Origin: a virus
Lineage: Duplodnaviria; Caudoviricetes
Strand: one strand, 5' to 3'
DNA: 52,668 nt
IMG/VR virus record: IMGVR_UViG_3300025010_000079
Coordinates: 1-52,668 of that record
The notes under the pieces: model-generated
What the model was told of the DNA's origin: nothing
What the model saw: the letters and a program-made list of their open reading frames with translations, nothing else
The model's database searches: none
Position numbers and translations under genes: made by a program
Part shown: piece after piece, positions 1,919-40,325 of the stretch
Numbering within the stretch: position 1 is the stretch's first letter
Layout of the letters: each line of letters opens with the position of its first letter

Positions 1919-3242
1919 TTAGTGTCTTGCTCGGCTTGATTTATTTGCTATTGCGAAGTATGATGAGGGGGAAATGTTTGTTGGACGTTTTTTATTAGTA
2001 ATATTCTTTCTTCTTAAATCATGTAAATAATGAGCAAGCATGATAATAGTGTAAAAACGGTCATCGTTCATTATGCGTTCTTTGTCTTTTGGTAATTTAT
2101 ATGATCTATTTGTCTTTTCTGGATTCTCAAATTTATAGATTGATGTTATTTCTGTTTTTAAAATATCCATATTGATTAAAGAAACTTCCTCCTCAAGAGA
2201 TAAATGTTTCTTTATTAGTTTTATTTCTTCGCCTTTTGCTTCTTGTAGCGTTACATATCCTTTTCCATCATATTCTTTTGGAAATTTTAATAAGTCTAAT
2301 TGCATTAACTCTATAAATTCATCAACCATTTGAGTGCGGTATTTATTTGGAGAGAATAATTTCAATTTATCACTAGCATTTGGATATCTATTTTCATATC
2401 CTGAGTATAATTCATAATCTTTATCTAAAAATCCTTTATGAACTACTCCTTTAACGTCCTTCCAATCTTCTAATAAATTATCTGCATAAGCACTAATTCC
2501 TCCACCTCCGGCTCCAGGATCAATGCTCAATATCTCGATATTTTGATAATCTGGTGCATTCCCATTGTAAGCTAATATACATTCTTTTAGTGCTTTAATT
2601 TGATCAGGAGATGACATTTTAATACCTTTTTTACTGGCTATATCAATTAAATTAGTACAATTAACTATTTCTCCATAATAACCTATGTTTTCATCATATA
2701 TTATTTTCATTACAGTTATTATACTTTGGTCTCCGCTACGTGCGGGGTCAAATGCTATTGCATATGTAAACCCTTCAACATAAGATAATTCAGGAAGTAT
2801 AAAAATTTCATTGCGTCTAATTTGCCCCCATTTGACAATTTGATTTTCACCGCCGTCTTTCGTAAAACGATTGTAATATTCTCGTTCGGCCTTACTTTTA
2901 TTTGCTCTCATAGCACTGTCAATTTTAGCTTGTGTTAAAAGAGGAGGATATATCTCTCCATCCAATGTAGGATTCAATGGAATATCACAAGGAATATCAC
3001 AACAGAAAAAATCAGAATTTCCAGCAAACATTTGTTTAGCAAAATTTTTATAATGTCTGTAAAAAGTAGTATCAACATCACTTGCAGAAGACGCATAAAT
3101 TAATTGAGTTGGGCATTTTTTTCTTTGTGCTTTTATATTAAAATCCTTTTTAATTGATGTTTTAAAGTTTGATTCTTGTGCTGCAAATGCTTCCATTACA
3201 CTAATTGCATTCTCTGACATAAAACCACTTTCATCGAAAAAT
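1919..3242 (-). CDS. terL: Terminase large subunit, exon 2 (Walker B FFDE and RNase H-like nuclease domain)
   Basis: Frame extends upstream of the ATG at 3220 as FFDESGF; nuclease motifs AFDPARSGD and NDDRFY. Confidence 0.9.
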
Positions 3243-3534
3243 CAATGTTGTTATCCATAAGGTTTTTTATCCCTATGTTCTCACAGTTCGTATTCCTGTG
3301 ACGTTCAGCATACATTTTCTTCACATTGTATAATAATAAAACAATGGTGGTGAGAAGGAGGACACTCGTGGGGAAATTATAGTCTTCTTCCGAAGGATCA
3401 TTCCCTATGCGTTACGGTGAGACATAAATTTTACAATTATGCTTTACCTCGGTACTTGGAATCACACCATCCACCGATTTTGCCCCCTAATAATTTGTAG
3501 TTACGCTACCACTTTCACTACAAACGGCATTTCT
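3243..3534 (-). ncRNA. Group I self-splicing intron, 292 nt, no internal ORF
   Basis: 5' exon ends in U (TTG GT|) and intron ends in G (CAACATTG|A), restoring GTA Val in ...RATLV-FFDE. P1 UGGU/GCCG with the U-G pair; P10 AGAAAU/AUUUUU; P7 GCAUA/UAUGC; core segments GGGGGCAAAAUCGGUG, ACCGAGGUAA, CCGUAACGCAUA, AAUGUAUGCUGAAC. Confidence 0.92.
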
Positions 3535-4064
3535 ACCAATGTGGCCCTTTTGCTCCTGTTATTATCTGGATCTCCATTTAGTGAATATATTTCACTCCCA
3601 TTGTAAAAACCAACATTAAATCCTGATTGTGCATGACTGAACCCAGTTTGACATGCAGGTGATTTAGAAGTTTCTTGTTTTACAATATCTTGTAATGAAT
3701 CAATTGAACTTGCAGTTTTGCCTAATCCTAAAACAATTTCTTCAATTTTTGTGAAAAGCTCCTTACTTTGATCTCCGACTGGTGCTGCGATATATATAGA
3801 TTGATTTTCATACAATACGGCCTTCAATATTATTATTATTGCACCAAGAAATGATTTTCCTGCCGATCTAGAACACGCCCATAAACTCATAGGCTTATTC
3901 CACGATTCTTGTAATATGTATTTTTGCATATCGAGGAGTTTAATTCCCAAAATAACTTCGCAAGCAATAATTGGATTTCGTCTGAGGAATTTTATAGTTT
4001 TTGAATTTGCTTTATATAATTCTATCTTTCTTGTACTTAATATACCTTGATTTCTTTTAGCCAT
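3535..4064 (-). CDS. terL: Terminase large subunit, exon 1 (ATPase N-terminus)
   Basis: Walker A-like SRSAGKS; ends RSKRATLV just before Walker B. Spliced product is 617 aa. Confidence 0.9.
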
Positions 4065-5238
4065 TAACTATATCACCAACTTGTTCAACACTCTTGTTCC
4101 CAAGTCGAACGTGTAATTGTCGATTTTCCTCTTCTAAATCAATAATTTTTGTTTGTAAATCACCTAATAACTGTCTTTGAGTAAGAAGTATATCATTTAA
4201 ATCATTCTCATCTAACTGTAATTGTTCTAAAATGCTCCTGTTTGATATATCTGCAACTAATTTCATACCATAAGCTTTGTTTTGATCATAATAATCTTGT
4301 TCAGCTTCTTCAAAGTTTAATTCTCTATATTCTTTCATTAAAGATGTTAATGTAGATTTTCCTGCTGATTTGTCTCCTCTGTTTTTTACAGAAATTGAAT
4401 TTTCTTTTGCAATCTTATCTGTACTACCTACTATTTGACTCTTAGTTGCAGATAATGATTTTATATCTCCTTGATTAGAAATTAATGTTTTTGTGTCATT
4501 ACTTAAACTAGAAATAACTAAATCTATTTTTCTAATTTGGTTGTTATTATTAACTAATTGTAGAACCTGTGAAAGTTTAAAAGCATCACTTAATAAATCT
4601 TCATCCAAATAAGTAATTAATTCATTATACAAAAACTTCTGATCAAAATTAGAATATCCAGCAAAAGGGTCATAACTTATAAGTCTAATCACATCACCTT
4701 TAACTTGTAAGTCATTTTCGGTTAGTTGTATATTATAATCTAAGTCTTTTACTTCAAGTTCTAAAGCGTTAGTTATAAGGTCTTTCCCCGTTTCTTTATC
4801 AAATAAGAACTTTGGATCAAAACCAGTTAAAGAATTATTAAAATTACCCAATGAATTAACTTTTGTCATGTAAATTTTAAAAGGATGAGAAGATTGATTA
4901 TTTACACATTGCTTCATTGCTCCATCGTAATCACCTTCATTAAATGGAATATCAAACTTCATACAAGTTATTAAGATAGCTTTCTTCATATCTTTTAAAA
5001 TATTATAATAAGTATCATATGTACTCCAAACACATTCCTTACAGAAACCCATCCATGGATGTTCAGGATGTTTTAAATTTATACCTACATATAAAGGAGA
5101 TAAGCTTTTATAAAAAGTGGATGCTCCTTTTACTGAAGATTTTGCTTCTCCACACATGGGACATGTTATTGTATTATTTTCAATATCAACTTGTGGCACA
5201 ATTGAATTATTTGCCACTGATTTTTTTTGTCTTGCCAC
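4057..5238 (-). CDS. YonG-like protein, putative terminase small subunit
   Basis: N-terminal CxxC...CxxC zinc finger, helical C-terminus, overlaps the terL start; syntenic with SPbeta yonG. Confidence 0.6.
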   Translation of the reverse strand: MARQKKSVANNSIVPQVDIENNTITCPMCGEAKSSVKGASTFYKSLSPLYVGINLKHPEHPWMGFCKECVWSTYDTYYNILKDMKKAILITCMKFDIPFNEGDYDGAMKQCVNNQSSHPFKIYMTKVNSLGNFNNSLTGFDPKFLFDKETGKDLITNALELEVKDLDYNIQLTENDLQVKGDVIRLISYDPFAGYSNFDQKFLYNELITYLDEDLLSDAFKLSQVLQLVNNNNQIRKIDLVISSLSNDTKTLISNQGDIKSLSATKSQIVGSTDKIAKENSISVKNRGDKSAGKSTLTSLMKEYRELNFEEAEQDYYDQNKAYGMKLVADISNRSILEQLQLDENDLNDILLTQRQLLGDLQTKIIDLEEENRQLHVRLGNKSVEQVGDIVNG

Positions 5239-5257
5239 TAAGTTTCACTTCCTTGAT

Positions 5258-6442
5258 TTATTTAACTTCTTTCAATAAAACATTACAATATTTATATTTG
5301 TATTCTAATAAATTATCAAATTCAAAATTTCTATACCTGACACAAAATTCCTCAAATTGTTCTTTATTATTATTTGAATAATTATATGTATCGTGATAAA
5401 GTTTGTGGAGTGATTTACATAAACAAACTCCATTTCCGTAATATTTATGCTTATTATGTAGCAAATTATAAATTAAGTCTCTTTCTTCCTCAGAATATTC
5501 ACCTATAGTCTTTAACATAGGTAATTTTAATTCTTCAAATAATTCATATACAATATTTTTAAAATTATATAGATGGTGGACATTATCAAATTCCCCATGA
5601 GTTAAAATGCATTTATAATTACATTCTTCCATAGAAGACTTTTTCCAATCTTGCAAATGGTCACGCAAATCGTAGTATAATTCCTTTATACCTCCTGCCC
5701 AACGACCATTTAATTCTCCATTTAATGGATTGATGTGTCTGGGATTTTTATCTCCCTTCCATACACCTTTCTTTCTAATGGAGATAAGTTTACGTCTTTT
5801 ATCATCTTTGTCCCATTTTACACCATATAGTGGATTATTTTCGCCTACATATTTCCCTTTTCTCGCTATAGATATTTTTCTTCTAGTTTCTTCGGGTAAA
5901 TGTTTACCATAATTATAGTTTTTATCACCTGCTAATTTCAATCCTTGTTGTTTATCTGCTCTTCTAGATGTTTCATACGTCTTATTTATTTTACCCATCT
6001 TAAAAGCTTTATTTATTAAACCTTTGTTAGTCTCTTCTAGAAAATACAATTCTATTAATTCTTCATTTGTAAAATGAGGATATACTTTTATAAATAATTC
6101 TTCTTTTTCTTCTGTCCACCATTGTTTGGGAATATATTCGTCTTTCATAAAATGCCCATCTTTACCACACTCACGACAGACATTGCGTAAACCATCTTTA
6201 CATAATTTATCAGGTGGAAAATATTTAATATCAACCTCTAACTCACGATTACATTTCTTGCAAAATTTATAACCATCTTTAGGTTTTGGTAAATTAAACA
6301 TCTTCTTTTTGTTTCTGCACTCTTTACATTGAGTAGTTAATCCGTCTGTGTTATATTTATCACTATTAAAATAATCTTTTGTGGCAGGGAATTCCCTTTC
6401 ACAACCACTACATTTTTTTGCTTTAACCTCTAAATCTTCCAT
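5258..6442 (-). CDS. Free-standing HNH homing endonuclease with Zn fingers and NUMOD3-like motifs
   Basis: Two CxxC..CxxC units, NYNYGKHLPEETRRKIS and GENNPLYG motifs, C-terminal VHHL...NGVCLCKSLHKLYH. ATG 6442 follows an AGAAGG RBS. Confidence 0.85.
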   Translation of the reverse strand: MEDLEVKAKKCSGCEREFPATKDYFNSDKYNTDGLTTQCKECRNKKKMFNLPKPKDGYKFCKKCNRELEVDIKYFPPDKLCKDGLRNVCRECGKDGHFMKDEYIPKQWWTEEKEELFIKVYPHFTNEELIELYFLEETNKGLINKAFKMGKINKTYETSRRADKQQGLKLAGDKNYNYGKHLPEETRRKISIARKGKYVGENNPLYGVKWDKDDKRRKLISIRKKGVWKGDKNPRHINPLNGELNGRWAGGIKELYYDLRDHLQDWKKSSMEECNYKCILTHGEFDNVHHLYNFKNIVYELFEELKLPMLKTIGEYSEEERDLIYNLLHNKHKYYGNGVCLCKSLHKLYHDTYNYSNNNKEQFEEFCVRYRNFEFDNLLEYKYKYCNVLLKEVK

Positions 6443-6747
6443 TATTCCAAAACCTTCTTTCTGCAAATTACATACCCTCTGCACTAACCACTAACCAAAA
6501 TCAACCACATAAAAAGTAAATAGAAGATAGGGTGCAGAGATGGGATCATGACTCCCAAAAAACCTATCTTCCTAGTCCACATATTCCTGTGAATAACAAA
6601 TAATCCAAAAAACTTCTGCTTGGATTATCGACTTACCCACAAAACTTTATATTCTCTTCTATTATTTATCCCATACACACAGAAAACGCCTGATTGCTCA
6701 AGCGTCTTATAACTTAGTAGACTTTATTTATCACCTATGATTATTAT

Positions 6748-7509
6748 CTAATTTAACAAAATATTATCATTATTACTCAACATACCATTTCCATACTTAA
6801 CCTCTAACTGATGCTTTATATAATCCTGCTTAAATCCTAAAGTGGTCAATGCAGTTACAATCGTTTCTGCCTCATCTACAATCTTTAATTCAGTCTCAGT
6901 TAAGTAATCTCTAGTTAAGTCACTCTTTTTATTTATATTTCTAGTTTCTCTTATTTGCTTTGCTTTCATATTAAACAAAATAAGATATACCATATCTGTG
7001 TAATTACTATACGTATATTTATTTATATTTGGTACATATTCTTGAATACTAGAGGTCATTCTTTTTCTATCAACTTTTCCAACTTCTCTTTGTAAATTCC
7101 ATTCTTTTTGCTTCCCTAAAAATGCTTGTGCCAACACATCTTTCGCATTTAGTTGATAATCAATAAGTTTATCGACTAAATTTGGATTGTTGTTTATCAT
7201 TTTATTTGTAATTGAAATTTTAGCTAACCACAAAGGTAAAAATTCTAATTCTAAGCATAAAGACTGCTGATTTCCTCCCTTTGTAGGGAGAACTAAATTT
7301 CGTTCCCCTTTAGAAAGTACAATATCTTCCTGAATTTTTATTCTTTCATTCTGCATTTGACCTTTGGACAAACCTATTCCATTACAAACCCAATTCACAC
7401 CTACATAACTTTTACCATCGTCCTTCATTCTGACTGTCATTATAGAATCACCATTGAAATCGACTTCCATTAACTCCATTTCTTTAAATTTTACTAATTG
7501 TCCAACCAT
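6748..7509 (-). CDS. Phage antirepressor-like protein (P22 Ant N-terminal-type domain)
   Basis: VDFNGDSI...YVGVNWVCNGIGL...LPTKGGNQQSLCLELEFLPLWLAKI motif. Confidence 0.8.
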   Translation of the reverse strand: MVGQLVKFKEMELMEVDFNGDSIMTVRMKDDGKSYVGVNWVCNGIGLSKGQMQNERIKIQEDIVLSKGERNLVLPTKGGNQQSLCLELEFLPLWLAKISITNKMINNNPNLVDKLIDYQLNAKDVLAQAFLGKQKEWNLQREVGKVDRKRMTSSIQEYVPNINKYTYSNYTDMVYLILFNMKAKQIRETRNINKKSDLTRDYLTETELKIVDEAETIVTALTTLGFKQDYIKHQLEVKYGNGMLSNNDNILLN

Positions 7510-7704
7510 ACAATTACTCCTCTGCTCATTTTTATAGTGGAAGTACGAGCAATACTTATCAGTGCGTTTATAGCAACCTATCCCTGCATTGTATTTTTAC
7601 AATACAAATGACTCCACTAATTTCTTAATGGAGTCTATCTATTGTAAAAATATTAAATTAACTAACAATTCACCCATTTAAAACTTAGAATTTATTGGAT
7701 AATT

Positions 7705-8978: not shown

Positions 8979-10184
8979 TTAATATTTAATATCATTTATA
9001 TATTTCTTCCCATATCCTTTACGAACTACAAACATTGTAGAACCTGCATCAGAACTCTTTTTAATGTCTTTTGCATACTCATTAATTCCCATAATTGATC
9101 TAACTTGAATAACTTCTTTCCCTTTTGCAACTTCAAATTCATTCTTCGTATGAAGATGTCCAACTACGAAATAATCAACTGATATTCCATATGTATTTTC
9201 ATAATCTTGAATACTTGTTTTAAGATTATTTTCCTTGTTACCATGAGCAGTTAAAAAGTTAAATCCATTAATATTAAAATAGTTCAAACCATCAAGACTA
9301 TCACAAATATTAACTCTTGGATTATTCTTAAAACACTTTTTTAATGTTCTTGTATAGATGCGCTCTAAATTCTCATGAGGAAAATCACCTTTTTTACCAG
9401 TTAAAATTCTCAAGTCTGAATGATTTCCTTCTGAAGTATAAAAATCAATACTGAATTTATCACATAATGAGAATAACCATTCCTCAATGAAATCAGCATA
9501 ATCCATAATATCATCCACAATGTTTCCTTTTAATGATTTAAGCTGACTAATATGTAAGATTCCTTCAATACTGTCTCCTAAATCAGTAATAGATAACTTT
9601 TTAATATTGTGCTTATTTCCAAAATCTATAAGTTCGTCCCTATATTCAATCATTCTTTTCTTAAATATTTTAGGATTATACTCATTAATAATTTCTCCAC
9701 TAAATCCTTTTATAGAAAATTCACAACCATAATGAGAATCCGCAAATGCACTAAATAATTCATCATCATTTCCATTAATTAATATAGGAGAAGGAATTGA
9801 TCTATTTTTCTTAGTAATTAGTTTTTTAATAGATTCATCTATTCTTTCATAGAATAATTCTTCTCTTGATTGCTCTTTTAACCAAGCATTATATTCATTC
9901 TTTTCATCTCTTAATTTTTGTCTTTCTTTGTACAATTCTCTTTTCTGAGTTTCATATTCCTTCAATACCTTATCACCAGAAACAAATTCCTTCTTAGTAT
10001 CCTCTACGCCTTCAAAATAAGCTTTTGCCCACTTGCGGTAACTAGACTCTCCTTGATTCTTCCCTGTTTCCTTATTAAGCAAATCAGCAATTTCTTGAGA
10101 TTTAAGATTATATAAATCTTTGTTAGCAAATAGGCGAATTTTATAATCTTTAATAGATTCTTGATCTTTTCTTATATATTCCAT
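8979..10184 (-). CDS. Calcineurin-like metallophosphoesterase (SPbeta YonJ-like)
   Basis: DSHYG, DLGD, GNHS, AHG and GHLH motifs after an N-terminal helical region. Confidence 0.88.
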   Translation of the reverse strand: MEYIRKDQESIKDYKIRLFANKDLYNLKSQEIADLLNKETGKNQGESSYRKWAKAYFEGVEDTKKEFVSGDKVLKEYETQKRELYKERQKLRDEKNEYNAWLKEQSREELFYERIDESIKKLITKKNRSIPSPILINGNDDELFSAFADSHYGCEFSIKGFSGEIINEYNPKIFKKRMIEYRDELIDFGNKHNIKKLSITDLGDSIEGILHISQLKSLKGNIVDDIMDYADFIEEWLFSLCDKFSIDFYTSEGNHSDLRILTGKKGDFPHENLERIYTRTLKKCFKNNPRVNICDSLDGLNYFNINGFNFLTAHGNKENNLKTSIQDYENTYGISVDYFVVGHLHTKNEFEVAKGKEVIQVRSIMGINEYAKDIKKSSDAGSTMFVVRKGYGKKYINDIKY

Positions 10185-10245
10185 TTATACCTCACGTATA
10201 AGTTTTATTTTCAATTTTAACAATCACAAATCGACCAGTGTGATT

Positions 10246-10413
10246 TTACTGTTTATCTTCTAATTCCAACAATTCTAACCAATTACCAACGTCCCTTGGC
10301 TCCCAATGTCCACATCTATTACATAAAGTAATATCCTTATAATTAATGTATTTAGGCCAGTATTTTTCAAATCCGCACTTAGGGCAACATGTATATTTTT
10401 CTTCTTTATTCAA
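10246..10413 (-). CDS. Small zinc-ribbon protein
   Basis: AAAGGAGG RBS then TTG at 10413; CPKC...CNRC. Confidence 0.7.
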   Translation of the reverse strand: MNKEEKYTCCPKCGFEKYWPKYINYKDITLCNRCGHWEPRDVGNWLELLELEDKQ

Positions 10414-10862
10414 TTTTATTAATCCTCCTTTAAGAGAATATAGTAAATTATTAAGGGACACCTAATATGAATTTAGATGTCCCAATTGGCATTACGACTA
10501 GTAATTATATGAAGACAGTTTATGAAACTTCTTCCAACTTAGATATAATGGCAATTTTTATCTCGGATATCATTGCCAAAACCCATTTAGTAAGTCTTTA
10601 TCTTAGGTTAATGATAAATAACCATTAACTGTCCTGTAGAGGACTTTGTTTTTATTCTATCATTCTCATCTGAGCAATATTAATATGTAAGAAGAGACTA
10701 TATTTACTCTCCTATTTGTCGTAATGTATGAAGGCAACCACTAAATTAATCGCAGTTGCCTTATTTGAATTCTTGCAAGAAAATAACTTACGTAGTTCTC
10801 TTGCTATTTCAACATTGAATCATAACTTTCGTATTTCTTCAATGTATCTACATAATTTTATT

Positions 10863-11254
10863 AACCAAAGCACCTCAAAACGAAACCAATTTAAGTTATT
10901 ATTATTTGAATTATCAAAATAAATTTATCCATTTATTTTATCTATAAAATATAGATTGCTTGTTTTTCTTATTTTTAAAGAAAATACTGCATAGCGAAGC
11001 GAATAGAGTTTTAAAGAATTATTGTATTGACAAATATCGAACTATTGTACTAAAGAATTAACGATTAATGAAGTGTATAACGTTCTTCTTGTTGCATATG
11101 TATAATTTAATATACGCATTATCTAAATCATGTTTATATTCTTCTGCACTATTAGTACAAAATATAAATTGTTTTATTTATATCCTGAATTTTTCATCAC
11201 TGCATAATTCCGCGATGACACGAATCGGTAAACATTTTTGAGAATGCTTTGGTT
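10863..11254 (-). ncRNA. Putative ~390-nt structured non-coding RNA of unknown family
   Basis: Ends pair: AACCAAAGCAUUCUCAAAAAUG..ACCGAUU (11254-11223) with AAUUGGU..CGUUUUGAGGUGCUUUGGUU (10891-10863); G-U pairs work on the minus strand; several internal hairpins; no credible ORF. Confidence 0.6.
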
Positions 11255-11261
11255 TTTATAA

Positions 11262-11297
11262 AAGTAGAAAGGGAGTGGTTAAGTCTCCCTCTTACTT
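11262..11297 (-). terminator. Hairpin plus U-run after the coiled-coil gene (terminator or processing site)
   Basis: AGUAAGAGGGAG...CUCCCUUUCUACU followed by UUU. Confidence 0.45.
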
Positions 11298-11313
11298 AGG
11301 GTAATCATAGTCA

Positions 11314-11985
11314 TTATTTAGATAATAAATATTGTTCCACGATTTCCAAAGTAGAGTCATGTACATCATATAGTCCATTAAACTCTACAATATTTTGAAG
11401 CATAGCAGATTCAATTTGTGTTGATAAAGTATCCGCTTTATTAAGCAATTTCTTATATAAGTCATTAACATGATTTCTATTAAAGTCAATAGTATTGGTT
11501 TTTAATATATCATATCTGTAACTAACTTGATTTCCTTCAACATTAAATTTATATGCTGAACCAATTTTCTTTTCTTCACTGGATTTAATATCTACAAGTG
11601 ATTTCAGATTATTAGCAAGTTCTCTGGATTTTTTAGCATATTCAATTGCAGAATCTAAAGTTAAATTAACTCCATTTTCTGTCCAATCTAAGAAGAGATT
11701 TTTCTTAGCAGTTTCAATTGCTAGAGATAATTCTAACTTCTGATCTACAAGTTGTTTTACAAGAAAAGCAATATCAACAATTGAAGCGTTAGGATATGTT
11801 CTTTCTGCTGTCATATCAATTGTTTCATCTTCAGCATCTTGATTAACTTTAGACTTTTGATGAATTTCTTTAATTGTAATAGCATTGGAAGTATTAGATA
11901 ATGAACGAGAAAGTGCGGAGATATTCTTTTCTAAGAAATTTAGCTGGCGAAAGCTTTCTTTGAGTGATAGTGCGCTATTAGACAT
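11314..11985 (-). CDS. Coiled-coil hypothetical protein immediately upstream of the structured RNA
   Basis: Long helical heptad segments; start more likely ATG 11985 after GAAGGA than TTG 12006. Confidence 0.8.
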   Translation of the reverse strand: MSNSALSLKESFRQLNFLEKNISALSRSLSNTSNAITIKEIHQKSKVNQDAEDETIDMTAERTYPNASIVDIAFLVKQLVDQKLELSLAIETAKKNLFLDWTENGVNLTLDSAIEYAKKSRELANNLKSLVDIKSSEEKKIGSAYKFNVEGNQVSYRYDILKTNTIDFNRNHVNDLYKKLLNKADTLSTQIESAMLQNIVEFNGLYDVHDSTLEIVEQYLLSK

Positions 11986-12235
11986 ATTTGTTTTTCCTTC
12001 TTTCAATTTGTATTTTTCTTTGTTAGAGTAATTAACTCAATTCTCAATAGTTTTAAATCTTAAATCAGGTTGAGTAAAGTCAAAATATAAATCAATTTAT
12101 TATGAAGGAATTACACTTGAAACCGAATTAGTGATAATCCGAGGAAGTTTACGCTTCTACAATTCCTTCATAAAATTAATTAATATCTAATTATAAGCAT
12201 ATAAAAATCTTTAGCGTCTTTATAATATTAATTAT

Positions 12236-12283
12236 AATTCAATTAATAATTAATATTAAAATTCAATTAATAATTAATATTAA
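12236..12283. repeat. 24-bp AT-rich tandem duplication
   Basis: AATTCAATTAATAATTAATATTAA x2. Confidence 0.85.
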
Positions 12284-12339
12284 AATTTCGCCTAGCAAAA
12301 ACTATGCTTATTATGTTTTTTCTTATAAATTATAATGTG

Positions 12340-12741: not shown

Positions 12742-13026
12742 TTATTGCTTAACTAAATCTGCAAACTCTTTGCCAACCTTAAATCCAACCTTAAATGAAT
12801 CTTCTGAAGTCCAAGTTTCACCTTTACGATCACCAAATCGAATTATACCAGTTGACCCTTTAGTTGGTTTCTTCTCGAATCCACCAAAACCAACGATTTT
12901 CACAGGTTCTCCAGTTGCTACAGTCTCTTTAATTACATCTAATACAGCATTGATTGCTTTTTCGGCATCCTTTTTTGACATTTCACCTTTTAAACTTACT
13001 GCTGTAATCATTTCATTTTTCGTCAT
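12742..13026 (-). CDS. hup: HU-family DNA-binding protein (YonN-like)
   Basis: MTKNEMI...SKKDAEKAINAVLDVIKETVATGEPVKIVGFGGF; atypical beta-arm. Confidence 0.92.
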   Translation of the reverse strand: MTKNEMITAVSLKGEMSKKDAEKAINAVLDVIKETVATGEPVKIVGFGGFEKKPTKGSTGIIRFGDRKGETWTSEDSFKVGFKVGKEFADLVKQ

Positions 13027-13290: not shown

Positions 13291-14523
13291 CTAATCTAAT
13301 AAACTTGCCATTTGAGCAATTTCACTACGCTCACATTTATCAAGATAAACATATCCAAACATTGGATGACCTTTAAATCTGTTTATCATTAATTCTAAAC
13401 CATTATTTTTTTTAAAGATTTTATCATCTATTTGCTTTACATCTCCATTAAAAAATACAATGCTTCCTTCAGATATTCTGCTTACAATTAATTTAACTAA
13501 AGAATCTGACATGTTTTGTGCCTCTGTACAATAAATAATGCTGTTTCTTAAATCCCTACCTCTTAAAAATCCTGGATGGATTAATTCTACTTTGCCATTA
13601 TTGAGCAACATTTCAAAACTAATCTTATCCCCCATAAAGTCGCTAATTATATCAGCATACACAGATAATTTTTCGGTCATAGTTCCAGGCAGGAATCCCA
13701 ATGGTTTGGTTCCATCAACCTCTATATTATTTCGTATCCATATAATTTTGTCATAGATCCCCTTATCAATCATAGTTAAGAAATTAGCTAATGCTAAGTA
13801 ATCTTTCCCAACTCCGTAAGAACCTTGTGCTATTTTCACTTTAGATTCTTTATCTTGAAGCATATCCATATATAATTCTTGTTGTAAATTCCTTGGTTTT
13901 ACTTTTCCTACATATCTACTTTCTGTATTTTTATAGGATAATGATTTAAAACCTTTTTCTGTCCATTTTAACTTATCAACAACATCTCCATTGCCATCTT
14001 TAATAAGAAGATATTCGTTCAATAATAAATCCCAATTATTAGTTTTGCATTCATAAAAAGTTGCTAATTCATATTCCGATAATGTAATTTCTTTATATCC
14101 AAGATATGAATCATCGCTTATTTTATCAGTTGGTTCAAACTTTTCACAAGGTACACCCATTGCTCGACATTTTTCTTGAAAAAGCATATCATTACTTAAA
14201 CAAACAAAATTATTATCCTTATCATATAAAACCTTGAGTAAAGAGATAATCTTATTATCCATGTTTTCTTTATCAAAACATGTTGGTAAATTATCATAAT
14301 CCGTTTCATCAATTATATAAGTAATTTTGTCTCTGTTGTTATTTATATCTCTAGTGGCTCGTCTAGCCTGAAATTTTACTTCTTCTGTTTTACCATTCTT
14401 CTTCAGGTTATCTAATTCACCAAGGACATAACCTGAGAGATGCGTATTTGAATATTTCTCAAATATTTCTTTAGAATATTCCATTACTACATTTGAGTCA
14501 ATATAATATGGTTTATCGGGCAA
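13291..14523 (-). CDS. phoH: PIN domain-PhoH ATPase fusion (PhoH2-like)
   Basis: PIN motifs IDSNV, ELD, MDNKI, SND; PhoH motifs GSYGVGKD, LGFLPG, LRGRDL, EAQN, GDVKQID. Confidence 0.9.
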   Translation of the reverse strand: MPDKPYYIDSNVVMEYSKEIFEKYSNTHLSGYVLGELDNLKKNGKTEEVKFQARRATRDINNNRDKITYIIDETDYDNLPTCFDKENMDNKIISLLKVLYDKDNNFVCLSNDMLFQEKCRAMGVPCEKFEPTDKISDDSYLGYKEITLSEYELATFYECKTNNWDLLLNEYLLIKDGNGDVVDKLKWTEKGFKSLSYKNTESRYVGKVKPRNLQQELYMDMLQDKESKVKIAQGSYGVGKDYLALANFLTMIDKGIYDKIIWIRNNIEVDGTKPLGFLPGTMTEKLSVYADIISDFMGDKISFEMLLNNGKVELIHPGFLRGRDLRNSIIYCTEAQNMSDSLVKLIVSRISEGSIVFFNGDVKQIDDKIFKKNNGLELMINRFKGHPMFGYVYLDKCERSEIAQMASLLD

Positions 14524-15157: not shown

Positions 15158-17785
15158 TCAGACTTTTTCTATTTTCCTACTTTTATCATATTCTCTTTTC
15201 CATAGTTTGTTTTGTTCGAGTTTAATTTTCTTTGCACAATTAAAACAATATTTAGATTTATTATTAGATTGTTCAATTAAATCGCCACAAACCTCACAAT
15301 ATATTTTATTTTTTTCTACATTTCTCCTTAAATTAGTAACAATAATATCTCCAAAGCATTCCCATAATGTAGTTTTAAAATTAGATTTTTTAAATTCATA
15401 TAGATATTTCACTAAAACATCTACTACATATTGAATATTTTTATTAATTTCTAGCATTTTCTCTCTTATTTCTTGATACAAATAAGTCATATTGCCTATT
15501 TCATCGTCCACCCTATTAATCATAAAGTGTTTTTTCAAATCTAATTCTTTATATTTCTTTATAATATTATCATCTAATTTTACATCTTCGTCTTTCATTA
15601 ATATTTTATAGTCAAATACTCCTAAATTAATGGCATTAAAGTTTATATTCGGATTAGGAATTAATTTATATAATCTATTGACTACACTATTATTAATTTT
15701 TTCTACTCTACCCTTTTCCTTATCTTTTGCATAAATGAAGAAGTGGGGGGTCTTTACTTTTGTGTATCCATTTATTAACTTTTTCATTTCACTTGGTCTT
15801 TTAGGTTTATATAATGTCTTAGCATAATCAATTGTAAAATTATTATCAAGACATAGTAATTTTATAACATCTAGATTTATATTATTACTATTCCATATTT
15901 TTGTTATATCATTACTAATCATTCCAATATTTCCACCAGTGTATGCAGTTTTTAATCCATTATATATGCTTTGATTACTTATATCTTCTGCCCCTGCTTT
16001 ACGCATGTTATAATATAGTGGCACTATATCTTTCATATTGCGTTCTGCTACTTTGATAATTGTTTCATCTGCACATACTAAGGATTTGTCTCCGTCCACA
16101 TCGAACATCAAGATCTTACTAATAATATCATGACAAGAAGTGTATAGCCCATTTGTGATAAACCATTCACTCTTATCTTCATCAATTACATTGTTCCTAA
16201 CAGCATGTTCCTTCCATAAATGAGGTGATCTTAGACAATCAAGTTTAGGGGTATCAGGGTATAAGTTACAATACACTTCTCCATTGTTAATTAATCCTGT
16301 GGGATTAGGATTTTTAAGAATTAAATATTCACAAAATGCATATAAATCTGGAATAATGAATGTGTATTTCCCATTGATAGCTAACTTAGCTGATCTTGCT
16401 TCCTTAACCATACTTTTTTTGACTTGTTTTAAAATTTCTCTACTGTATGTATCATTTAATAATTCTGGATAAATTTCTAATGCTTGCTGTATATAGTTTT
16501 TATTCTTATTAGACTTCTTTACACCTAAAACTTTAAGCATTGTCTTCCTATCACTACCTATATTTACAATATGGTGTTTAGTAGTTTTTGAAACATCTTT
16601 CAACTCTTCATCAGTCATATCCGTTAATGTTTGGAGCATCTGATAATTAATCTTTGCATCATTAAAATCATCTTCCTCTTCATTACATTTTCCAGCTTGA
16701 CAATTATATTTTTTGAAATTTTCTATATAAGCATCCCATCCATATTTTATTACTTTGCCATTTTCATCTAATATATTTGGAAAATATTTATACATTTTAA
16801 ATTGACTTTTTGTAAAAATTAATTCTATTCCATCTTTTAATAAGTCATGGGATTTTCCATAAATATCAACTACTATACCATATTCTTTATTTTCTTCATT
16901 TTTATTAACTTTTGAAATGAATTTATCAAATTCAAAAGGTACTAAAAGTCCCTTTATCCAAGGCAATCTAACCATAAAACTCTTTTTACTTAAACTTGGA
17001 AGAATCATACCAACCCCATCTGTATGTGAAATCGGGATATTCATTTTTACTTTTGGTGAAATATTATAAGTTTCATCATCTATAAAATCTACAATTCCTT
17101 CAACATCGGTTTCCATATCTTCTACGACAATTGACTTCGTAATATCAAAACCTTTCCATTCATCTGTTGCAGAATTTGAGAGTGCTAAATAAGCTAGGTA
17201 TTTATTAATATTTACTCCACCTAATTCATTTATTCTTTCAATTGTTAATCCACACATTAATGTATTTTGATATTCAGTAAGAACACTTTCTTTAATAAAC
17301 ACTGTCTTTTTTGTTCTTATTTGTCCGGCACTAGCTGTAAGACAAACATATTTTTCATTATTATACATAAATCCATCAAGTATGATATCTTCAATTACAT
17401 CAAAGAAAAAAGTTTGTACAATAATAATATCTGTGGTTAATGTCTTTTCTGGTATTTGTATTGTTCTAGTTAACACAGAATCAAAAATAGAAATTATATT
17501 TCTTTTATTAAAGGAATTAGGATTTAAAACCCTAACCCCTTTATTTAAATCAAATACTAGATATAATCCTTCTTTGTTATATTTTATTGATTTGTTTATA
17601 AACGCAATATATTCTTCTATTTCTTTAACATCTGATATATTATCTTTCAATTTATTAATCAACAGATATAGTTCGTTTCTTAATATATACAACTCATTCA
17701 TATTTCCATGGATAACCATTTCATCTTCATTATAAAAACTACTGGTATCAACGCTATAGATGTGAATTTGTTTATTTAGACTAAT
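15158..17785 (-). CDS. yonO: YonO-like single-subunit DNA-dependent RNA polymerase
   Basis: Catalytic FDVDGD, TASAGQIRTKK, HTDGVGM, RLPWIKG, LRSPHL, C-terminal Zn ribbon. Frame extends 22 codons past ATG 17719 to ATT 17785, 6 nt after AAGGAGGAG. Confidence 0.93.
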   Translation of the reverse strand: MSLNKQIHIYSVDTSSFYNEDEMVIHGNMNELYILRNELYLLINKLKDNISDVKEIEEYIAFINKSIKYNKEGLYLVFDLNKGVRVLNPNSFNKRNIISIFDSVLTRTIQIPEKTLTTDIIIVQTFFFDVIEDIILDGFMYNNEKYVCLTASAGQIRTKKTVFIKESVLTEYQNTLMCGLTIERINELGGVNINKYLAYLALSNSATDEWKGFDITKSIVVEDMETDVEGIVDFIDDETYNISPKVKMNIPISHTDGVGMILPSLSKKSFMVRLPWIKGLLVPFEFDKFISKVNKNEENKEYGIVVDIYGKSHDLLKDGIELIFTKSQFKMYKYFPNILDENGKVIKYGWDAYIENFKKYNCQAGKCNEEEDDFNDAKINYQMLQTLTDMTDEELKDVSKTTKHHIVNIGSDRKTMLKVLGVKKSNKNKNYIQQALEIYPELLNDTYSREILKQVKKSMVKEARSAKLAINGKYTFIIPDLYAFCEYLILKNPNPTGLINNGEVYCNLYPDTPKLDCLRSPHLWKEHAVRNNVIDEDKSEWFITNGLYTSCHDIISKILMFDVDGDKSLVCADETIIKVAERNMKDIVPLYYNMRKAGAEDISNQSIYNGLKTAYTGGNIGMISNDITKIWNSNNINLDVIKLLCLDNNFTIDYAKTLYKPKRPSEMKKLINGYTKVKTPHFFIYAKDKEKGRVEKINNSVVNRLYKLIPNPNINFNAINLGVFDYKILMKDEDVKLDDNIIKKYKELDLKKHFMINRVDDEIGNMTYLYQEIREKMLEINKNIQYVVDVLVKYLYEFKKSNFKTTLWECFGDIIVTNLRRNVEKNKIYCEVCGDLIEQSNNKSKYCFNCAKKIKLEQNKLWKREYDKSRKIEKV

Positions 17786-28768: not shown

Positions 28769-29440
28769 CTACATCATCTCAATAAAAGGTATTAAAATTC
28801 TAGGAGATGCAATACCAGTATTTGATATAGTATGTGTTGCACCTGTGATTCCAAATCTTTTACTTTGTTCTTCACCAAAATAACTACAACTATGAGTTTC
28901 TAACCAATTATATTGTTTTGTTTTTACTTCTATATCATATTTCTTTATATGATATCCAGAATCTATTTTGCTAACATCTATAACTCTATACTCAATATTA
29001 TATTTATCCAAGAATGATGTAGCATTGGAAAGTAATAAATCAAAATTCTCCTCCCAATCACAGTCATTACAGAAACAAAATTGCTCAAGTTTAACAAATT
29101 CTTTACATCTTTTTAATCCTTCATAGCCATAATTTTCATGTCTAAAGCATTGATTTTTAGAATAAATGAGTTGTGGTTTAACATAAGAATCTGAGTAATA
29201 TTGTAATATTCCTTGCTCTGCCGAACCAGATAAATTATGTATATGATCTACTGAAAGAGATTTAACAATATCTTCAATACCTTGTCTTTCAAAACTATTC
29301 CATCTTGTTAAACTTGGAATTGATAAATATCTAAACCCCTTACCATCTAACATATCTTCAAATTCTATGAATAGTTTCTTTTCTAATAGAGATAGTTCAA
29401 ATCCTAAATTATAAATACCACTTTCTACTTCATATTTCAT
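28769..29440 (-). CDS. Seryl-tRNA-synthetase-like class II catalytic domain lacking the tRNA-binding coiled-coil arm
   Basis: GSAEQ, motif 2 CFRHE...GLKRCKEFVKLEQF, KKYDIEV, ETHSCS, motif 3 HTISNTGIASPR; only 223 aa. Confidence 0.85.
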   Translation of the reverse strand: MKYEVESGIYNLGFELSLLEKKLFIEFEDMLDGKGFRYLSIPSLTRWNSFERQGIEDIVKSLSVDHIHNLSGSAEQGILQYYSDSYVKPQLIYSKNQCFRHENYGYEGLKRCKEFVKLEQFCFCNDCDWEENFDLLLSNATSFLDKYNIEYRVIDVSKIDSGYHIKKYDIEVKTKQYNWLETHSCSYFGEEQSKRFGITGATHTISNTGIASPRILIPFIEMM

Positions 29441-32957: not shown

Positions 32958-35139
32958 TTGTGGTAATTGTGATTTAATTAATTTTGGATTGGAGTGATTT
33001 TAAATTATAAAATAAATTTATATTATTTTAAGTAAATATTTGCATCGTTTGATTAGAGTTTGGTATTCGTACTAGACTCTATTTTTTTGTTTATGTTTAA
33101 TTATTATGTAATTGTACAATGTTATTAATGGATTATTATTTGGAGATTAATTATGTATAAATGATATTGATTTTATTTCGATGTTGTTTAATATTATTTA
33201 TTATTCTATATAGAAAATTGATTATAAGACGTTTGATTTAATTATTTGATAGAATGTTAAAATGGTTTATTTAAGTGGAATATGAGGGTGTTTGTAGATG
33301 ATATTGTTTGACATTATGATAATATATTGGTGTAAAATAGAGTATAGAATATGAGAAATGAATAATGAAGTATAGTTACTTAGGCCCAAGATTATTGTTA
33401 GTATGATGTAGATTATATCGAAGAAATAGCGAGTTAGATATTGTGTTTTTTTCGTATTGGAATTTTAGATAATGTATGGGAATTGAAATGGTAGTGTACT
33501 CGCACTCGTAGTCAATTCGAGTGTCGATTTAGATGTACTCTGTCGAATACTGTCGAAATAAAAAGTTGGGTTTTTGTAATCCCACGCCCCTTATTGGCAT
33601 GGTTTTTGAAAGTGAATATCAGCACAGGTTTTTGCTATAGTCTATGCTTATGACAAACTAAAACTAATCAATCCGGCCAAAGCAAAAAACGCTACAACCC
33701 GCCTATAGCTTCATTCTCACTCTAATATGAATGTTACTAAAGATGCTTGTGTAACATTCGGTTAGAATTGAGGGTAGTTATGGTATGGGCCGGATGATTT
33801 GGAGAGCTTAAAGGGTGAATTTGTGGCAGGAAATTGAAAGGGAATGATAATAGATAATGTCCTGGCATTACATCGGCTACACTCGGTAACGATAATGTCG
33901 AATTGATTGTAATGGATGAAATGGAATGATTATAGAGAGAATGAAGCAATTTATGGGCCTTATTATTATTGTGCGTTATAACGCTCAAAATATCGGATCT
34001 TATAACATAGGCGAAGTTGTTGAAGTATTACAAGTGTAAACACAACTACAAATGTAATCAATGTATTGCAACAGTATACAAATGTATACCTAGTATAAAA
34101 AAGATACTAACTATATTAAACATATTATTATACAATTACACAACCACATCATACCATCACATGAATTCTTAATGCAGTCATATGAACTCATTATAATAAA
34201 TCTAATCAAATAACCATCTTCTCCAATCATACATCAACACAATACAGTCACTTGACTACATTACACCTTCATATAATAATAATCTCATTATACTATCACT
34301 CTAACCTCATTACATGATCACAATTATCACATACAAAAATCATATACCATCATAATCCAAACTAATACCAACTATCTCGCTAAACAATATATCACACTAA
34401 ACTACTCAACATTAATACATACCATATCACTTGGTATTATATCCTATCATTATACTATACATTAAATCATACTAATTCACTAGAATATAATCCATACTAT
34501 TCCTCTATACATTAATCCTAATCATATTAAAACATCTCCAATCAAATCCTATGCCAAAAACCCTAAAATCACGACACACCCGATACCGTGTAGAAAAATT
34601 TTAGTATAAACCCTAAAATAAAATTCTACACACTTATATAACCCTCTAAACCTCAAACCGCTTAAAAGCCCCTTTCTGTCTCTCTCACGCAATATTTTAT
34701 TTCTTGCTTCAATACATCCTATCAACTCATACTTTACACTTGGCATACATATTGCATAGCATACAGCAATACAACCAACTTTAGCAAACATACTGCAATC
34801 CGGTTAACTCTAACCATCTTACAGAGATATAATGCTAACCTCTAACACTCTGTTACTATTTGATCAATCTTTATTTGTTACCTCTTATCTTATCCATTAT
34901 TGCTTCTATTTTACTCATCCCTAACATTCTCCCTCTATCACTTCTAAACCTCTTAAAACACCATTCTAGGGCTTATAAGCCCAACATAATAACCTTATTA
35001 ACCTTCATTCTGTATGTACAATTTTATCCCTATATAATAGGAAACAACTATAAAAATAAATATTTGAAAACCCCCTAAAACCTATTGCGTTAACTCTCAA
35101 AATGGTTATAATTATATATAAGAGGTTAAATAAAAGGGA
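32958..35139. other. 2.2-kb non-coding, compositionally skewed region at the transcriptional divergence
   Basis: C-poor plus strand to about 33.5 kb, nearly G-free plus strand at about 34.1-34.55 kb; no credible ORFs. Confidence 0.7.
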
Positions 35140-35148
35140 GTGTTGAAT

Positions 35149-38483: not shown

Positions 38484-38723
38484 ATGACTAAAACATTTGA
38501 TCCAGGTACATACCAATATATGTCTTCTCTATCAATCCACAAAAAGGCTGACAAAAAGAAAGTCGATGAAGAAAAAATAATATCTCGAATGTATGCTGTA
38601 TGCCGGAAGTATGATAAGAGCTTGGATGAAATAACCAAAAAGGAGTTAACTAAAACAGAGTACAAGCACTTAATGGATTTTATAAATTTAAGAGGTTATA
38701 CTGGTTATGATAATTTAGACTAG
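38484..38723 (+). CDS. Hypothetical protein
   Basis: GGAGGT RBS; TTGACG...TATTAT promoter upstream. Confidence 0.75.
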   Translation: MTKTFDPGTYQYMSSLSIHKKADKKKVDEEKIISRMYAVCRKYDKSLDEITKKELTKTEYKHLMDFINLRGYTGYDNLD

Positions 38724-38751
38724 ATAAAAATATCTAGTCTTTTTCTTTTTT
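38717..38751 (+). terminator. Intrinsic terminator (AGACTAG family)
   Basis: AGACTAGATA/TATCTAGTCT plus T-run. Confidence 0.85.
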
Positions 38752-38818
38752 GTACTAGCAAATTACCCAATCAACAACATATAATAAATAAAATAAAAAA
38801 ATAAAGGAGTTGGCGCGA

Positions 38819-39004
38819 ATGAAAACAGAAAAACAATTGGATAAAAAATGGAAAGAATTAAAAAATCGTATATCAATTATGATTGAACAAGCTGAACTTT
38901 TTGTATTAGATAATCCTTCCGATAAAAAAAGAATAGAATATCTTAAATCACTCATCTTGCCGGAACGAGAAGAAATTTTTAAAAATCTTAATCGGAATAT
39001 CTAA
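38819..39004 (+). CDS. Hypothetical protein
   Basis: AAGGAG RBS then ATG 38819. Confidence 0.65.
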   Translation: MKTEKQLDKKWKELKNRISIMIEQAELFVLDNPSDKKRIEYLKSLILPEREEIFKNLNRNI

Positions 39005-39036
39005 AGACTAGAAATAATATTCTAGTCTTTTTCTTT
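39003..39036 (+). terminator. Intrinsic terminator (AGACTAG family)
   Basis: AAAGACTAGAA/TTCTAGTCTTT plus T-run. Confidence 0.85.
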
Positions 39037-39450
39037 GCTCATTCAGCCCGATCAACTCATTTTCCCTTTTCAATCCTTCGCACCCTCAAAACACACGGAC
39101 AGAAATGGCCCTTCTTGCCTTTAGATTGCATTGCCTAGTATAATCTTATCTAGCATCGGTTTTAAACGTCTCAGAATAAAAATAGGGTTAATTGTGGCTG
39201 TGATTCTATACAAATTTAAAAATAATATTAAAATAATTAGCATTTCCACGCAATCAATAGCTATCTATAGATAATGCCATATAATCCACTGTAAAATGGT
39301 TAAAACGGGCTAAAATGGAATTCGCTATATAATGCCTAATGCTTTAAAATAGGGTACATAGAGAAGCACACAAACATAGAGCAGACAAAAAGCCTCTTAC
39401 CTCAGTTATCTTTAGTCAGTCAACTATAAAGTGTAAAATAAAATTTATAC

Positions 39451-39479
39451 TTGACAAAATGAACTCTATCTATTAAAAT
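39451..39479 (+). promoter_or_regulatory. Sigma-A promoter of the long early operon
   Basis: TTGACA-17 nt-TAAAAT. Confidence 0.8.
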
Positions 39480-39486
39480 GGGTATC

Positions 39487-39780
39487 AAGAACAAAAACAT
39501 AGTGCCTACGCAAAATAGGCCAAAAGGAGGTAATCAGACTCTTAGCAAAGACTAAATCCTTCGAAGCTCAAGGCTACCTGAAGGAAAGCACCTCTAGTCA
39601 AGGAATGCTTAAAAAGGATCGCTCTTTGACAATTAAATAAACCTTTCCTGAAGTTATACAAAGTATTGTTTATATGTCTATAAGTTCGCTTGCGTCTGAT
39701 GGCAATTAAACAATATGGAGATACTGGCACTAAGGTTGCCAAGGAAGTAATAGGGAAAGGCTTAAAACCTCTCTTTTAAA
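39487..39780 (+). promoter_or_regulatory. Structured untranslated leader with boxA-like antitermination site
   Basis: CGCTCTTTGACA at 39620-39631; multiple hairpins; no plus-strand ORF. Confidence 0.55.
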
Positions 39781-39840
39781 CTCTTATTTGCTTAAACTTG
39801 TTCCCGTGTTTGCCCTCTTAATTAAGAGGAGGAAAATTAA

Positions 39841-40047: not shown

Positions 40048-40325
40048 CAAATACCAACACAAGAGGGTAAACACAAGGACAAGAAAAGCAAAAAGAGAGA
40101 ATTAACCAAAACATTCTAAAATCCCTTTAGTTTACATTATTACAATTTAATCATAACAATTGCGTTAAACTTGCATAACAAAATTAAAATGCAGGTTGTT
40201 GTAATTTAATGTTAAATTGTCTATACTTAAGGCTGAAGGGATTAATTAAACTTAAGGTGTGAACTTAAAATTATTTATGAGTTTAGACCTTGGGTAAAAA
40301 TTAAGAATGAAAGAGGTTATGGAAA

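Follow-up and report, generated by a model that had tools for sequence, protein, structure and literature searches.

A large pseudoknotted RNA linked to a conserved protein gene in phages and Clostridia-type bacterial genomes

The viral contig fragment IMGVR_UViG_3300025010_000079 (Caudoviricetes) is 52,668 bp long, has a G+C content of 24-37% and an estimated completeness of 32%, and was analyzed over its whole length, which is referred to below as the window. Its minus-strand genes span 0.3 to 30 kb. Among them is a gene for a protein of 223 amino acids (aa) at positions 11314-11985, behind which lies a gap of 1.07 kb that is poor in open reading frames (ORFs). This gap is the site of a structured RNA element of 392 nucleotides (nt), encoded at 10863-11254 on the same strand as the gene, to which an earlier note made from the sequence of the window had drawn attention. 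The element proves to be one member of a family of large RNAs that is found, with few exceptions, directly behind genes for homologues of the 223-aa protein.

On the minus strand, the region 10855-11262 folds with a predicted energy of -79.6 kcal/mol, compared with -60.2 +/- 4.7 kcal/mol for 100 shuffled sequences, none of which folds as well (z -4.1); the plus-strand fold of the same region is weaker (z -2.8). The ends were said in the earlier note to form a long interrupted stem, and they do. The 5' arm of this closing helix, P1 (11236-11254), pairs with the 3' arm (10863-10880) in a duplex of -34.5 kcal/mol, and further inside, ACC at 11227-11229 pairs with GGU at 10885-10887, the GGU being part of a conserved A-rich strand, AAAUUGGU (10885-10892). 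This inner helix sits just before stem 1 of a pseudoknot, in which GAUUC (11222-11226) is fully complementary to GAAUU (11206-11210), a strand located inside the loop of stem 2. Stem 2 (UCAUCGC at 11212-11218 with GUGAUGA at 11194-11200) is one of the hairpins that had already been described, and it covaries in the family. Past the pseudoknot, and still on the minus strand, come a variable hairpin, AGGAUAUAAAU / AUUUAUAUUUU (11159-11186), and then a central tract (about 10987-11075; 9 G in 89 nt) that is poor in G and little paired, carries short quasi-repeats containing CG and terminates in a conserved ACGCUUCGCUAUGC block. The 3' third holds three short AU-rich hairpins (10966-10982, 10940-10956 and 10917-10938) in a variable, poorly conserved region. 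The poorly paired tract had been pointed out before, as had a repeated UAUGCAG, two copies of which run downward from 11206 and 10993. The remaining hairpins of the earlier description, at 11159-11186 and 10940-10956, are present in the window, but no conserved pairing was found at either site among relatives, which have different hairpins at both sites.

The borders of the element are sharp. In the three closest viral homologues (L001-L003; protein identity 76-83%), the stretch of 390 nt is kept from the first to the last base of the closing helix, similarity to the window ends at the outer bases of this helix, and indels inside it compensate one another, as in the P1 arms of L001 and L003. 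nhmmer extended the element to L007, L008, L060 and L061 (protein identity 51-60%), with weak matches further out, and in the family as a whole its length is 390-560 nt. At every locus with the 5' motif, RNAduplex found an interrupted closing helix of 25-45 bp between the sequence just behind the gene and sequence lying 350-550 nt beyond it, and RNAalifold predicted both the closing helix and the 5' hairpin from 21 high-GC members. The sequences of the closing helix differ strongly between loci although the pairing is kept: 95.4% of 670 alignment cells pair, compared with 78.0% in column shuffles (none of 500 reaches the observed value) and 34-47% with slid partners, and compensatory changes on both sides are seen in 22 of the 25 pairs. 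Over 32 scored pairs (25 of the closing helix and 7 of the hairpin) in 21 sequences, there are 67 G-U or U-G cells and 12 A-C or C-A cells. The folded strand is therefore the sense strand of the gene, and the statement of the earlier note that the G-U pairs of the window suit only that strand holds at the level of the family. Hairpins of the C(UUCG)G type, present in high-GC members, also point to RNA over DNA.

The pseudoknot, overlooked in the earlier note, is of the H type and forms the 5' core of the family. Five bases preceding the hairpin, mostly GGUUC, pair with five bases of its loop (GAACU), an arrangement revealed by variant cores in which both strands change together, GCUUC being matched by GAAGU and GUUUC by GAAAU. 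Among 91 distinct rows aligned with the covariance model R1, the covarying pair of stem 1 is GC in 59, CG in 20, GU in 7, AU in 4 and UA in 1, with no mismatches; three neighboring pairs are invariant, and the fifth is G-U in 76 rows and mismatched in 13. This count is unbiased, because R1 encodes only the hairpin and the rows were not selected for stem 1 pairing. Counts from rows selected with a pseudoknot descriptor were set aside, those rows having been chosen by the pairing itself. When RNAalifold was applied to the eight closest relatives of the window, it returned exactly stem 1.

At the inner junction, the conserved A-rich strand (AAAAUGGUC in high-GC members) closes a short helix beside the pseudoknot, with GAUC/GGUC, GACC/GGUC and GGCC/GGCC as pairs seen; that this strand might take part in a triple helix is a guess. 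The G-poor tract of the family lies about 95-215 nt past the core and ends in a conserved ACRYYUC block, and its poorest 80-nt segment contains 5-16% G, compared with 12-32% overall. In 40 such tracts, 35 of 195 CG-to-CG spacings are of 8 nt, whereas shuffled tracts give 14.5 +/- 4.0 (maximum 28 in 500), a periodicity that is only suggestive because the 40 tracts are related sequences.

The linkage between RNA and gene was counted over 136 protein-anchored loci (sets of 67 and 69), with the window counted separately. The scans that supplied them covered 56 viral loci and the best 80 of 173 matching stretches in species-representative genomes, the latter being mostly Clostridia-type metagenome-assembled genomes and isolates. 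R1 is a small model that encodes the hairpin of the 5' core only and was built from 49 training rows. It succeeded a strict regular expression for the core, which matched 53 of 136 loci, and a strict pseudoknot descriptor, which matched 89 of 134 with 3 and 8 control matches. R1 matches 110 of the 136 loci (47/67 and 63/69) as well as the window, and each of the 110 has exactly one match, on the strand of the gene and just 3' of it. The match in the window itself (11188-11240, minus strand; 25.5 bits, E 7e-4) arises partly by construction, because its core is among the training rows; independent support for its membership comes from nhmmer and from the alignments with L001-L008, L060 and L061. 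As for the 26 R1-negative loci, three have too little downstream DNA, and 19 of the 23 that could be tested have a long helix far above shuffled controls together with a variant compact core. The stretch searched in L045, also R1-negative, is too short for the helix. An extra ORF is inserted between gene and RNA in L020, L021 and L057.

Starting from the RNA leads to the same result. A 22-base pattern taken from the RNA alone was found at 71 viral loci, and in 67 of these the gene ends 60-140 nt upstream; the remaining four, which lack the 3' half of the hairpin, were rejected as chance matches in coding sequence. Five whole bacterial genomes contain seven RNA cores and seven genes, paired one to one, with two pairs in each of two genomes. 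Here the cores lie 55-115 nt behind the gene on the same strand, and no orphan or scattered core was found. RNA and gene are an obligate two-part module, linked almost completely in both directions, and we have very little doubt that a genuine family of structured, strand-specific RNAs exists here and that it is tied to a single family of proteins. The earlier note had read the stretch as a discrete RNA, folded on one strand and belonging with the gene beside it, and had proposed that the sequence downstream of homologous genes be examined; the structure found there is conserved and covarying, and with sharp borders and near-complete linkage the claim is upheld; the stretch is no AT-rich spacer of random sequence.

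The partner gene of the window, taken from the ORF list, is preceded by a GAAGGA ribosome-binding site 9 nt before its ATG, and its product has the same length as P0001 (223 aa). Of 401 candidates, 117 are homologues of the protein at E<=0.001; family members range from 205 to 230 aa, and the family has no match in Pfam (E<=0.01), PHROG, NCBIfam or PADLOC (E<=0.1). An AlphaFold2 model with a predicted local distance difference test score (pLDDT) of 91.4 consists of four long helices and a beta-hairpin, YKFNxEGNQVxY, which contains the most conserved residues of the family. Fold comparison gave one clear match, 3kdq_A from Corynebacterium (Z 10.7, 150/152 residues), the function of which is unknown. 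Foldseek returned nothing from the PDB at E<=0.001, and its TolC-like rows were not accepted as homology, given template modeling scores of 0.22-0.24 and poor superposition. A search of BFVD with the model gave only uncharacterized phage proteins, a profile search of PDB sequences with the family gave nothing below E 1, and the ESM Atlas offered only unnamed clusters and a lead to DUF7873 (26% share). Literature searches returned no mention of DUF7873 and, judged by title, only unrelated mentions of '3KDQ'. Pfam and fold comparison revealed no nuclease, pore or nucleoside triphosphatase signature. Eleven singleton homologues appear longer, being joined to an integrase, a recombinase, a CCA-adding enzyme and others; these were read as read-through gene calls and not as genuine fusions.

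Between the stop codon and the RNA of the window lies a hairpin with a GGGAG/CUCCC core and a 9-nt loop (11269-11291, minus strand), followed by a U-rich run (11255-11268), which together may act as an attenuating terminator or else form the 5' flank of the RNA. A terminator scan left the hairpin unflagged because its loop exceeds 8 nt. Close relatives retain a hairpin of different sequence in this gap; in most high-GC relatives the closing helix starts only about 5-25 nt past the stop codon, and there is therefore no room for a hairpin of the kind seen in the window. Between 10200 and 12400, sigma-70-like promoters show no excess (14, compared with 15.8 in shuffles), and direct repeats are short and present in two copies only. 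Upstream of the partner gene, in a gap of 330 nt, AT-rich direct and inverted repeats at 12156-12285 (D2, D3, I1 and I17) may be an operator or promoter.

The pair of gene and RNA is found in phages and in Clostridia-type genomes from gut, rumen and groundwater, and the cultured carriers named among the matches include Oscillospiraceae, Flintibacter, Dysosmobacter, Flavonifractor and Oceanirhabdus isolates. Three settings can be distinguished. In large phages, an RdRP-like gene (after the Pfam RNA-dependent RNA polymerase family) is followed by the partner gene, the RNA, one or more tRNAs, a PIN-PhoH or beta-CASP RNase gene and ClpP; the window belongs to this setting with a different gene order. 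The RdRP-like gene is directly upstream of the module in L018, L034, L040, L047 and L051 and nearby in the window, and its position in those five loci raises the possibility of a functional tie between polymerase and RNA in large phages. The second setting, associated with the variant core, is a phage cluster for RNA repair, with an RNA ligase (PF09414), a kinase-phosphatase-Rnl1 fusion, RtcB, metallophosphoesterases, GP88, Thg1 and homing HNH genes; a Pnkp-type kinase-phosphatase-ligase and NYN are also among the neighbors. In the third, bacterial genomes carry a compact unit followed by a conserved convergent gene of the helix-turn-helix (HTH) family HTH_3, between varied, ordinary flanks. 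In 9 of 25 sampled bacterial loci the flanks include genes of defense type, namely type I restriction-modification subunits, Fic, Schlafen/AlbA_2, ABC-3C CTD10, WYL, RhuM, Macro, ADP-ribosylglycohydrolase and NYN. A tblastn panel with a single representative per family, applied to 137 loci and giving lower bounds, found ligase-type neighbors in at least 16, any repair-type neighbor in at least 32, an RdRP-like gene in at least 12 and the HTH gene in at least 51. Of 55 loci scanned for tRNA genes, 16 have co-oriented ones within 4 kb, and in 8 of these a tRNA directly follows the RNA.

The HTH_3 gene is placed so close to the RNA that the two overlap. It was located at 4994-5374 (minus strand) of L127 and also in L032, L038, L055, L096, L111, L114 and L115, with 58-90% identity. 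In the seven of these loci with a mapped RNA end (all but L111), its reading frame overlaps the 3' arm of the RNA by 65-125 nt, on the other strand. A conserved GAGCAGCAGGC...GCCUGCUGCUC hairpin, situated just beyond the RNA, encodes the invariant motif E.Q...C.S of the HTH_3 protein. Overlapping convergent transcription could couple the gene and the RNA. The panel did not find the gene in the phage of the window.

Within the window, the 223-aa gene has as neighbors an exonuclease (phrog_284, 8979-10184), an HU-like protein (12742-13026), a PIN-PhoH protein (13291-14523) and an 853-aa protein (15158-17719, minus strand) with matches to Pfam RdRP (PF05183, E 8.7e-14) and phrog_8308 (E 1.5e-281), which we take to resemble the single-subunit RNA polymerases of YonO type. 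The gene content also includes a portal protein, a large terminase in two pieces, a helicase, HNH endonucleases and a radical-SAM protein. The terminase ORFs (1919-3220 and 3501-4064, minus strand) match positions 434-563 and 261-338 of phrog_2 and are separated by 280 nt, which suggests a split or interrupted gene, perhaps one containing an intron. A 223-aa protein at 28769-29440 (minus strand) matches phrog_4806, 'histidyl tRNA synthetase' (E 1e-39), and is another tRNA-related gene. A Twister-P5 ribozyme at 48428-48493 (plus strand; 57.1 bits, gathering threshold 37.6) lies just upstream of an ORF at 48525-48899. Two stretches, at about 32960-35140 and 38720-40330, lack any ORF of 90 aa or more; the first has only ORFs of 70-83 aa (33737-33988, 34549-34791 and 34860-35078) and shows a sharp swing in GC skew at 34001-35000 (-0.61). 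These stretches could hold further non-coding RNAs or a strand-switch region. Beyond the RNA, a 71-aa zinc-ribbon ORF (10246-10461, minus strand) has a sub-threshold match to Cas12f1-like_TNB (E 0.006), and a convergent 53-aa ORF (10467-10628, plus strand) precedes the only terminator-like site of the region (10631-10644 and a T-run). A degraded TnpB/omega-RNA locus was considered and dropped, there being no HEARO or other such match in the window and no open frame on the minus strand of the gap.

Observations were also made at related loci. In L034, ARAGORN reports a tRNA with a four-base anticodon (acag) at 5145-5227 (plus strand), after a tRNA-Tyr and the RNA element, which may be of frameshift-suppressor type. 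A HEARO RNA is found some few hundred bases past the element in each of L007 (5537-5776), L008 (5560-5790) and L083 (6393-6607), and in L007 the HEARO RNA is followed by an RRXRR-HNH (IscB-like) gene at 5787-7178 and a skipping-rope RNA at 7503-7631.

The RNA family was not recognized in the earlier note, and a search of Rfam 15 likewise gave no match on the element. At gathering thresholds, the window has only the Twister-P5 match mentioned above; at E<=10, the region 10200-11400 has three chance-level matches, all outside 10863-11254, and the element of L127 has six, all at E>=2; and the loci of 24 relatives, at gathering thresholds, have tRNA, HEARO and skipping-rope matches elsewhere and nothing on the element. 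The Rfam library includes GOLLD and ROOL, and the element matches neither, nor does it match the OLE, Y RNA, HEARO, 6S, RNase P, tmRNA or group I/II intron families. ARAGORN detected no tRNA or tRNA-like gene in the window, and a phage GenBank collection yielded nothing to either blastn or tblastn. Literature searches turned up no account of this RNA. A core motif is absent from the searchable supplements of a large catalogue of candidate RNAs (PMC8040213), two further files of which were unsearched and could still list a fragment. The element is best filed as an uncatalogued class of large structured RNA whose protein partner is obligate.

Functionally, the closest systems are Ro60-Y RNA and GOLLD/ROOL, to neither of which the element can be assigned, as it has no TROVE partner, no tRNA-like domain and no Rfam match. 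In bacteria and phages, the Y RNA (YrlA) is encoded beside the gene of its partner protein, Ro60 (Rsr) (PMC4201824), and the rsr-yrlBA-rtcBA operon brings the pair together with RtcB RNA repair. Here, too, an RNA gene stands beside a protein gene, with RtcB, RNA ligases, Pnkp and Thg1 as RNA-repair neighbors. Unlike Ro60, the partner protein is of 205-230 aa, matches neither TROVE/Ro60 nor any other Pfam family and has a different predicted fold, and unlike Y RNA, the element has a pseudoknot in place of the tRNA-like domain. Y RNAs, the ends of which pair in a stem as those of the element do, are several times shorter. GOLLD and ROOL are large, complex RNAs that occur in phages, in prophages and outside them, often beside tRNAs (PMC5737381), and they have been described as RNA-only complexes (10.1101/2024.12.08.627333). 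The element resembles them in being a large, complex phage RNA that is also found outside phages and can lie close to tRNA genes, and differs in being locked to a protein gene and in having no Rfam match even at E<=10. OLE is a large structured bacterial RNA with a dedicated partner, Oap (PMC3413148), through which it is described as localized to the membrane. The element shares the dedicated protein with OLE but not its Rfam family or its host range, which here comprises phages and Clostridia-type bacteria, and its partner has no detected family. In ToxIN, a protein gene and an adjacent short-repeat non-coding RNA form a compact module carried on mobile elements and phages. The module described here resembles type III toxin-antitoxin systems in that a compact protein gene adjoins a repeat-bearing RNA; unlike in those systems, the RNA is downstream and not upstream of the gene, forms one folded unit instead of an array of repeats of about 36 nt, and comes without a PADLOC match.

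Several explanations other than a ribonucleoprotein have to be weighed, of which two are disfavored. A function at the level of DNA is highly improbable, whether as an origin of replication, a single-strand origin, a site of recombination or packaging or a small inverted-repeat mobile element, although the element's terminal inverted repeats, its AT-rich interior in the window and the abrupt end of conservation on both sides would suit such a role. The tolerance of G-U but not of A-C, the covarying pseudoknot and the UUCG-type loops all argue for RNA, and an orientation to the gene that is fixed in 110 of 110 loci, with one copy per gene and none scattered in five genomes, also tells against a DNA site. 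The outline of the element was called retron-like in the earlier note, which saw no reverse transcriptase in the window, and the 5' and 3' ends do pair in the manner of the a1/a2 repeats of retrons. The latter observation on the enzyme is borne out, as no RVT_1 match is present in the 52,668-bp record (32% complete), nor is there one among 189 neighboring ORFs (14 + 40 + 135; Pfam); the linked gene is not that of a polymerase, and retron RNAs are two to three times shorter. An msr-msd RNA that serves a reverse transcriptase encoded elsewhere is therefore barely credible, and the retron outline is not supported. The element might instead be a 3' untranslated region that acts in cis on the mRNA of the protein, to stabilize it, to direct its processing or to regulate its translation, and that does nothing in trans. 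This would account for a helix that begins a few bases past the stop codon in most members and for an element never seen without the gene in five whole genomes. In its 390-560 nt, conserved pseudoknot, covarying helix of 25-45 bp and conserved unpaired tract, the element far exceeds known bacterial 3' stabilizers, and the terminator-like hairpin between gene and element in the window and the ORF inserted in three loci are difficult to reconcile with such a function, which we consider very unlikely.

Of the cis-acting region and the two explanations that follow, only the cis-acting region is clearly weakened. The RNA might work alone, as an RNA-only assembly or a ribozyme, with the protein as a co-transcribed helper, for example a chaperone of folding or assembly, or as the product of a functionally separate gene that shared expression keeps adjacent. 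Its size, complexity and setting resemble those of GOLLD/ROOL as described in PMC5737381, co-oriented tRNAs are found as stated above, and the protein is acidic and without an RNA-binding domain; on the other hand, a free-standing RNA would be expected to show much looser linkage than the one-to-one association with a single protein family seen here, there is no orphan core in five genomes, and the Rfam models are unmatched, so that we regard this as a rather unlikely alternative. Unlikely, too, is a cassette for defense, abortive infection or addiction, with the protein as effector, the RNA as its antidote, sensor or guide and the HTH protein as regulator, in loose analogy to type III toxin-antitoxin pairs or to defense systems that use a non-coding RNA; phage copies would then serve as weapons or counter-measures. 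Such a cassette would fit the compact unit, its varied chromosomal settings with genes of defense type at 9 of 25 sampled loci, the conserved convergent HTH_3 gene and the presence of two copies in two of five genomes, and the singleton calls joined to integrases or recombinases suggest adjacency to the ends of mobile elements. The count of defense-type neighbors is, however, without a statistical control and the phage of the window has no such HTH gene, while the protein has no PADLOC match at E<=0.1 and none of the signatures of a nuclease, pore or nucleoside triphosphatase. The RNA, moreover, is downstream, has no tandem array of long repeats and is far bigger than known RNA antitoxins.

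We think it probable, with moderate confidence, that this uncatalogued large-RNA family and its partner gene form a ribonucleoprotein module, which may act on RNA in phage-host conflict. The RNA, encoded on the strand of the gene and immediately 3' of it, would be co-transcribed with it, as the start of the helix a few bases after the stop codon in most members suggests. The closing helix would stabilize the RNA and perhaps direct its excision, and the protein would bind it, with the repeat tract or the pseudoknot core as the likeliest site, a proposal that draws on the co-occurrence of the two and on the repeat tract. The pair may then act in damage sensing, repair scaffolding or the protection of tRNA or other RNA, as would fit neighbors such as RNA ligases, Pnkp, RtcB, Thg1, phosphoesterases, tRNA clusters, PIN-PhoH, beta-CASP RNase and RdRP-like genes. 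The role in RNA conflict is the weaker of the two proposals, the neighbors being informative in a minority of loci. The observation made in the earlier note is confirmed and extended, and its interpretation, a discrete RNA bound by an oligomer of the adjacent protein, is partly supported.

A number of findings weigh against this module and its proposed role. Family searches detected no recognized RNA-binding domain in the protein family, and the isoelectric points of its members are mildly acidic (4.9-6.0 in 24 of 24 aligned members), which counts somewhat against a classic RNA-binding protein. The hairpin and U-run at 11255-11291 could stop most transcripts before the RNA, and a search of sequencing runs for the window found five DNA runs and no RNA run. 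Periodicity of CG is weak in the window's own tract (4 CG in the sampled tract), and where it is seen, the kinship of the tracts tells against it. Repair-type neighbors are a minority (32/137) and cluster in the variant-core subfamily, which is not that of the window; no RNA_ligase match is present in the window record, which is 32% complete; and the bacterial flanks, ordinary or of defense type, fit a defense or addiction module as well as they fit repair.

A more specific version of the ribonucleoprotein proposal is doubtful but can be stated. Several copies of the helical protein would read the periodic CG repeats of a pseudoknotted RNA of about 450 nt, and this new class of ribonucleoprotein would work in RNA damage and repair during phage-host conflict, as a portable two-part cassette. 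The particle might, for instance, be a scaffold or splint on which broken tRNA or other RNA is offered to neighboring ligases and end-healing enzymes or, alternatively, a decoy or sensor for host anticodon nucleases. The cassette would be shared by phages and bacterial islands, and with the HTH gene it would have three parts.

Large, intricately folded RNAs of bacteria and phages are rare, and every earlier class has opened a line of biochemistry. The present family is abundant: it is represented at 110 of the 136 loci anchored on the protein and at 67 viral loci besides, which fall into 48 clusters at 80% identity (counted with about 8 false entries still included), and its covariation is unusually clear. 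It is also directly testable because, unlike GOLLD/ROOL, it has an obligate protein partner, one without a detected family. Its recurrence among RNA ligases, Pnkp, RtcB, Thg1 and tRNA clusters suggests that the module may be an unrecognized player in RNA repair or in the conflict of phage and host over RNA.

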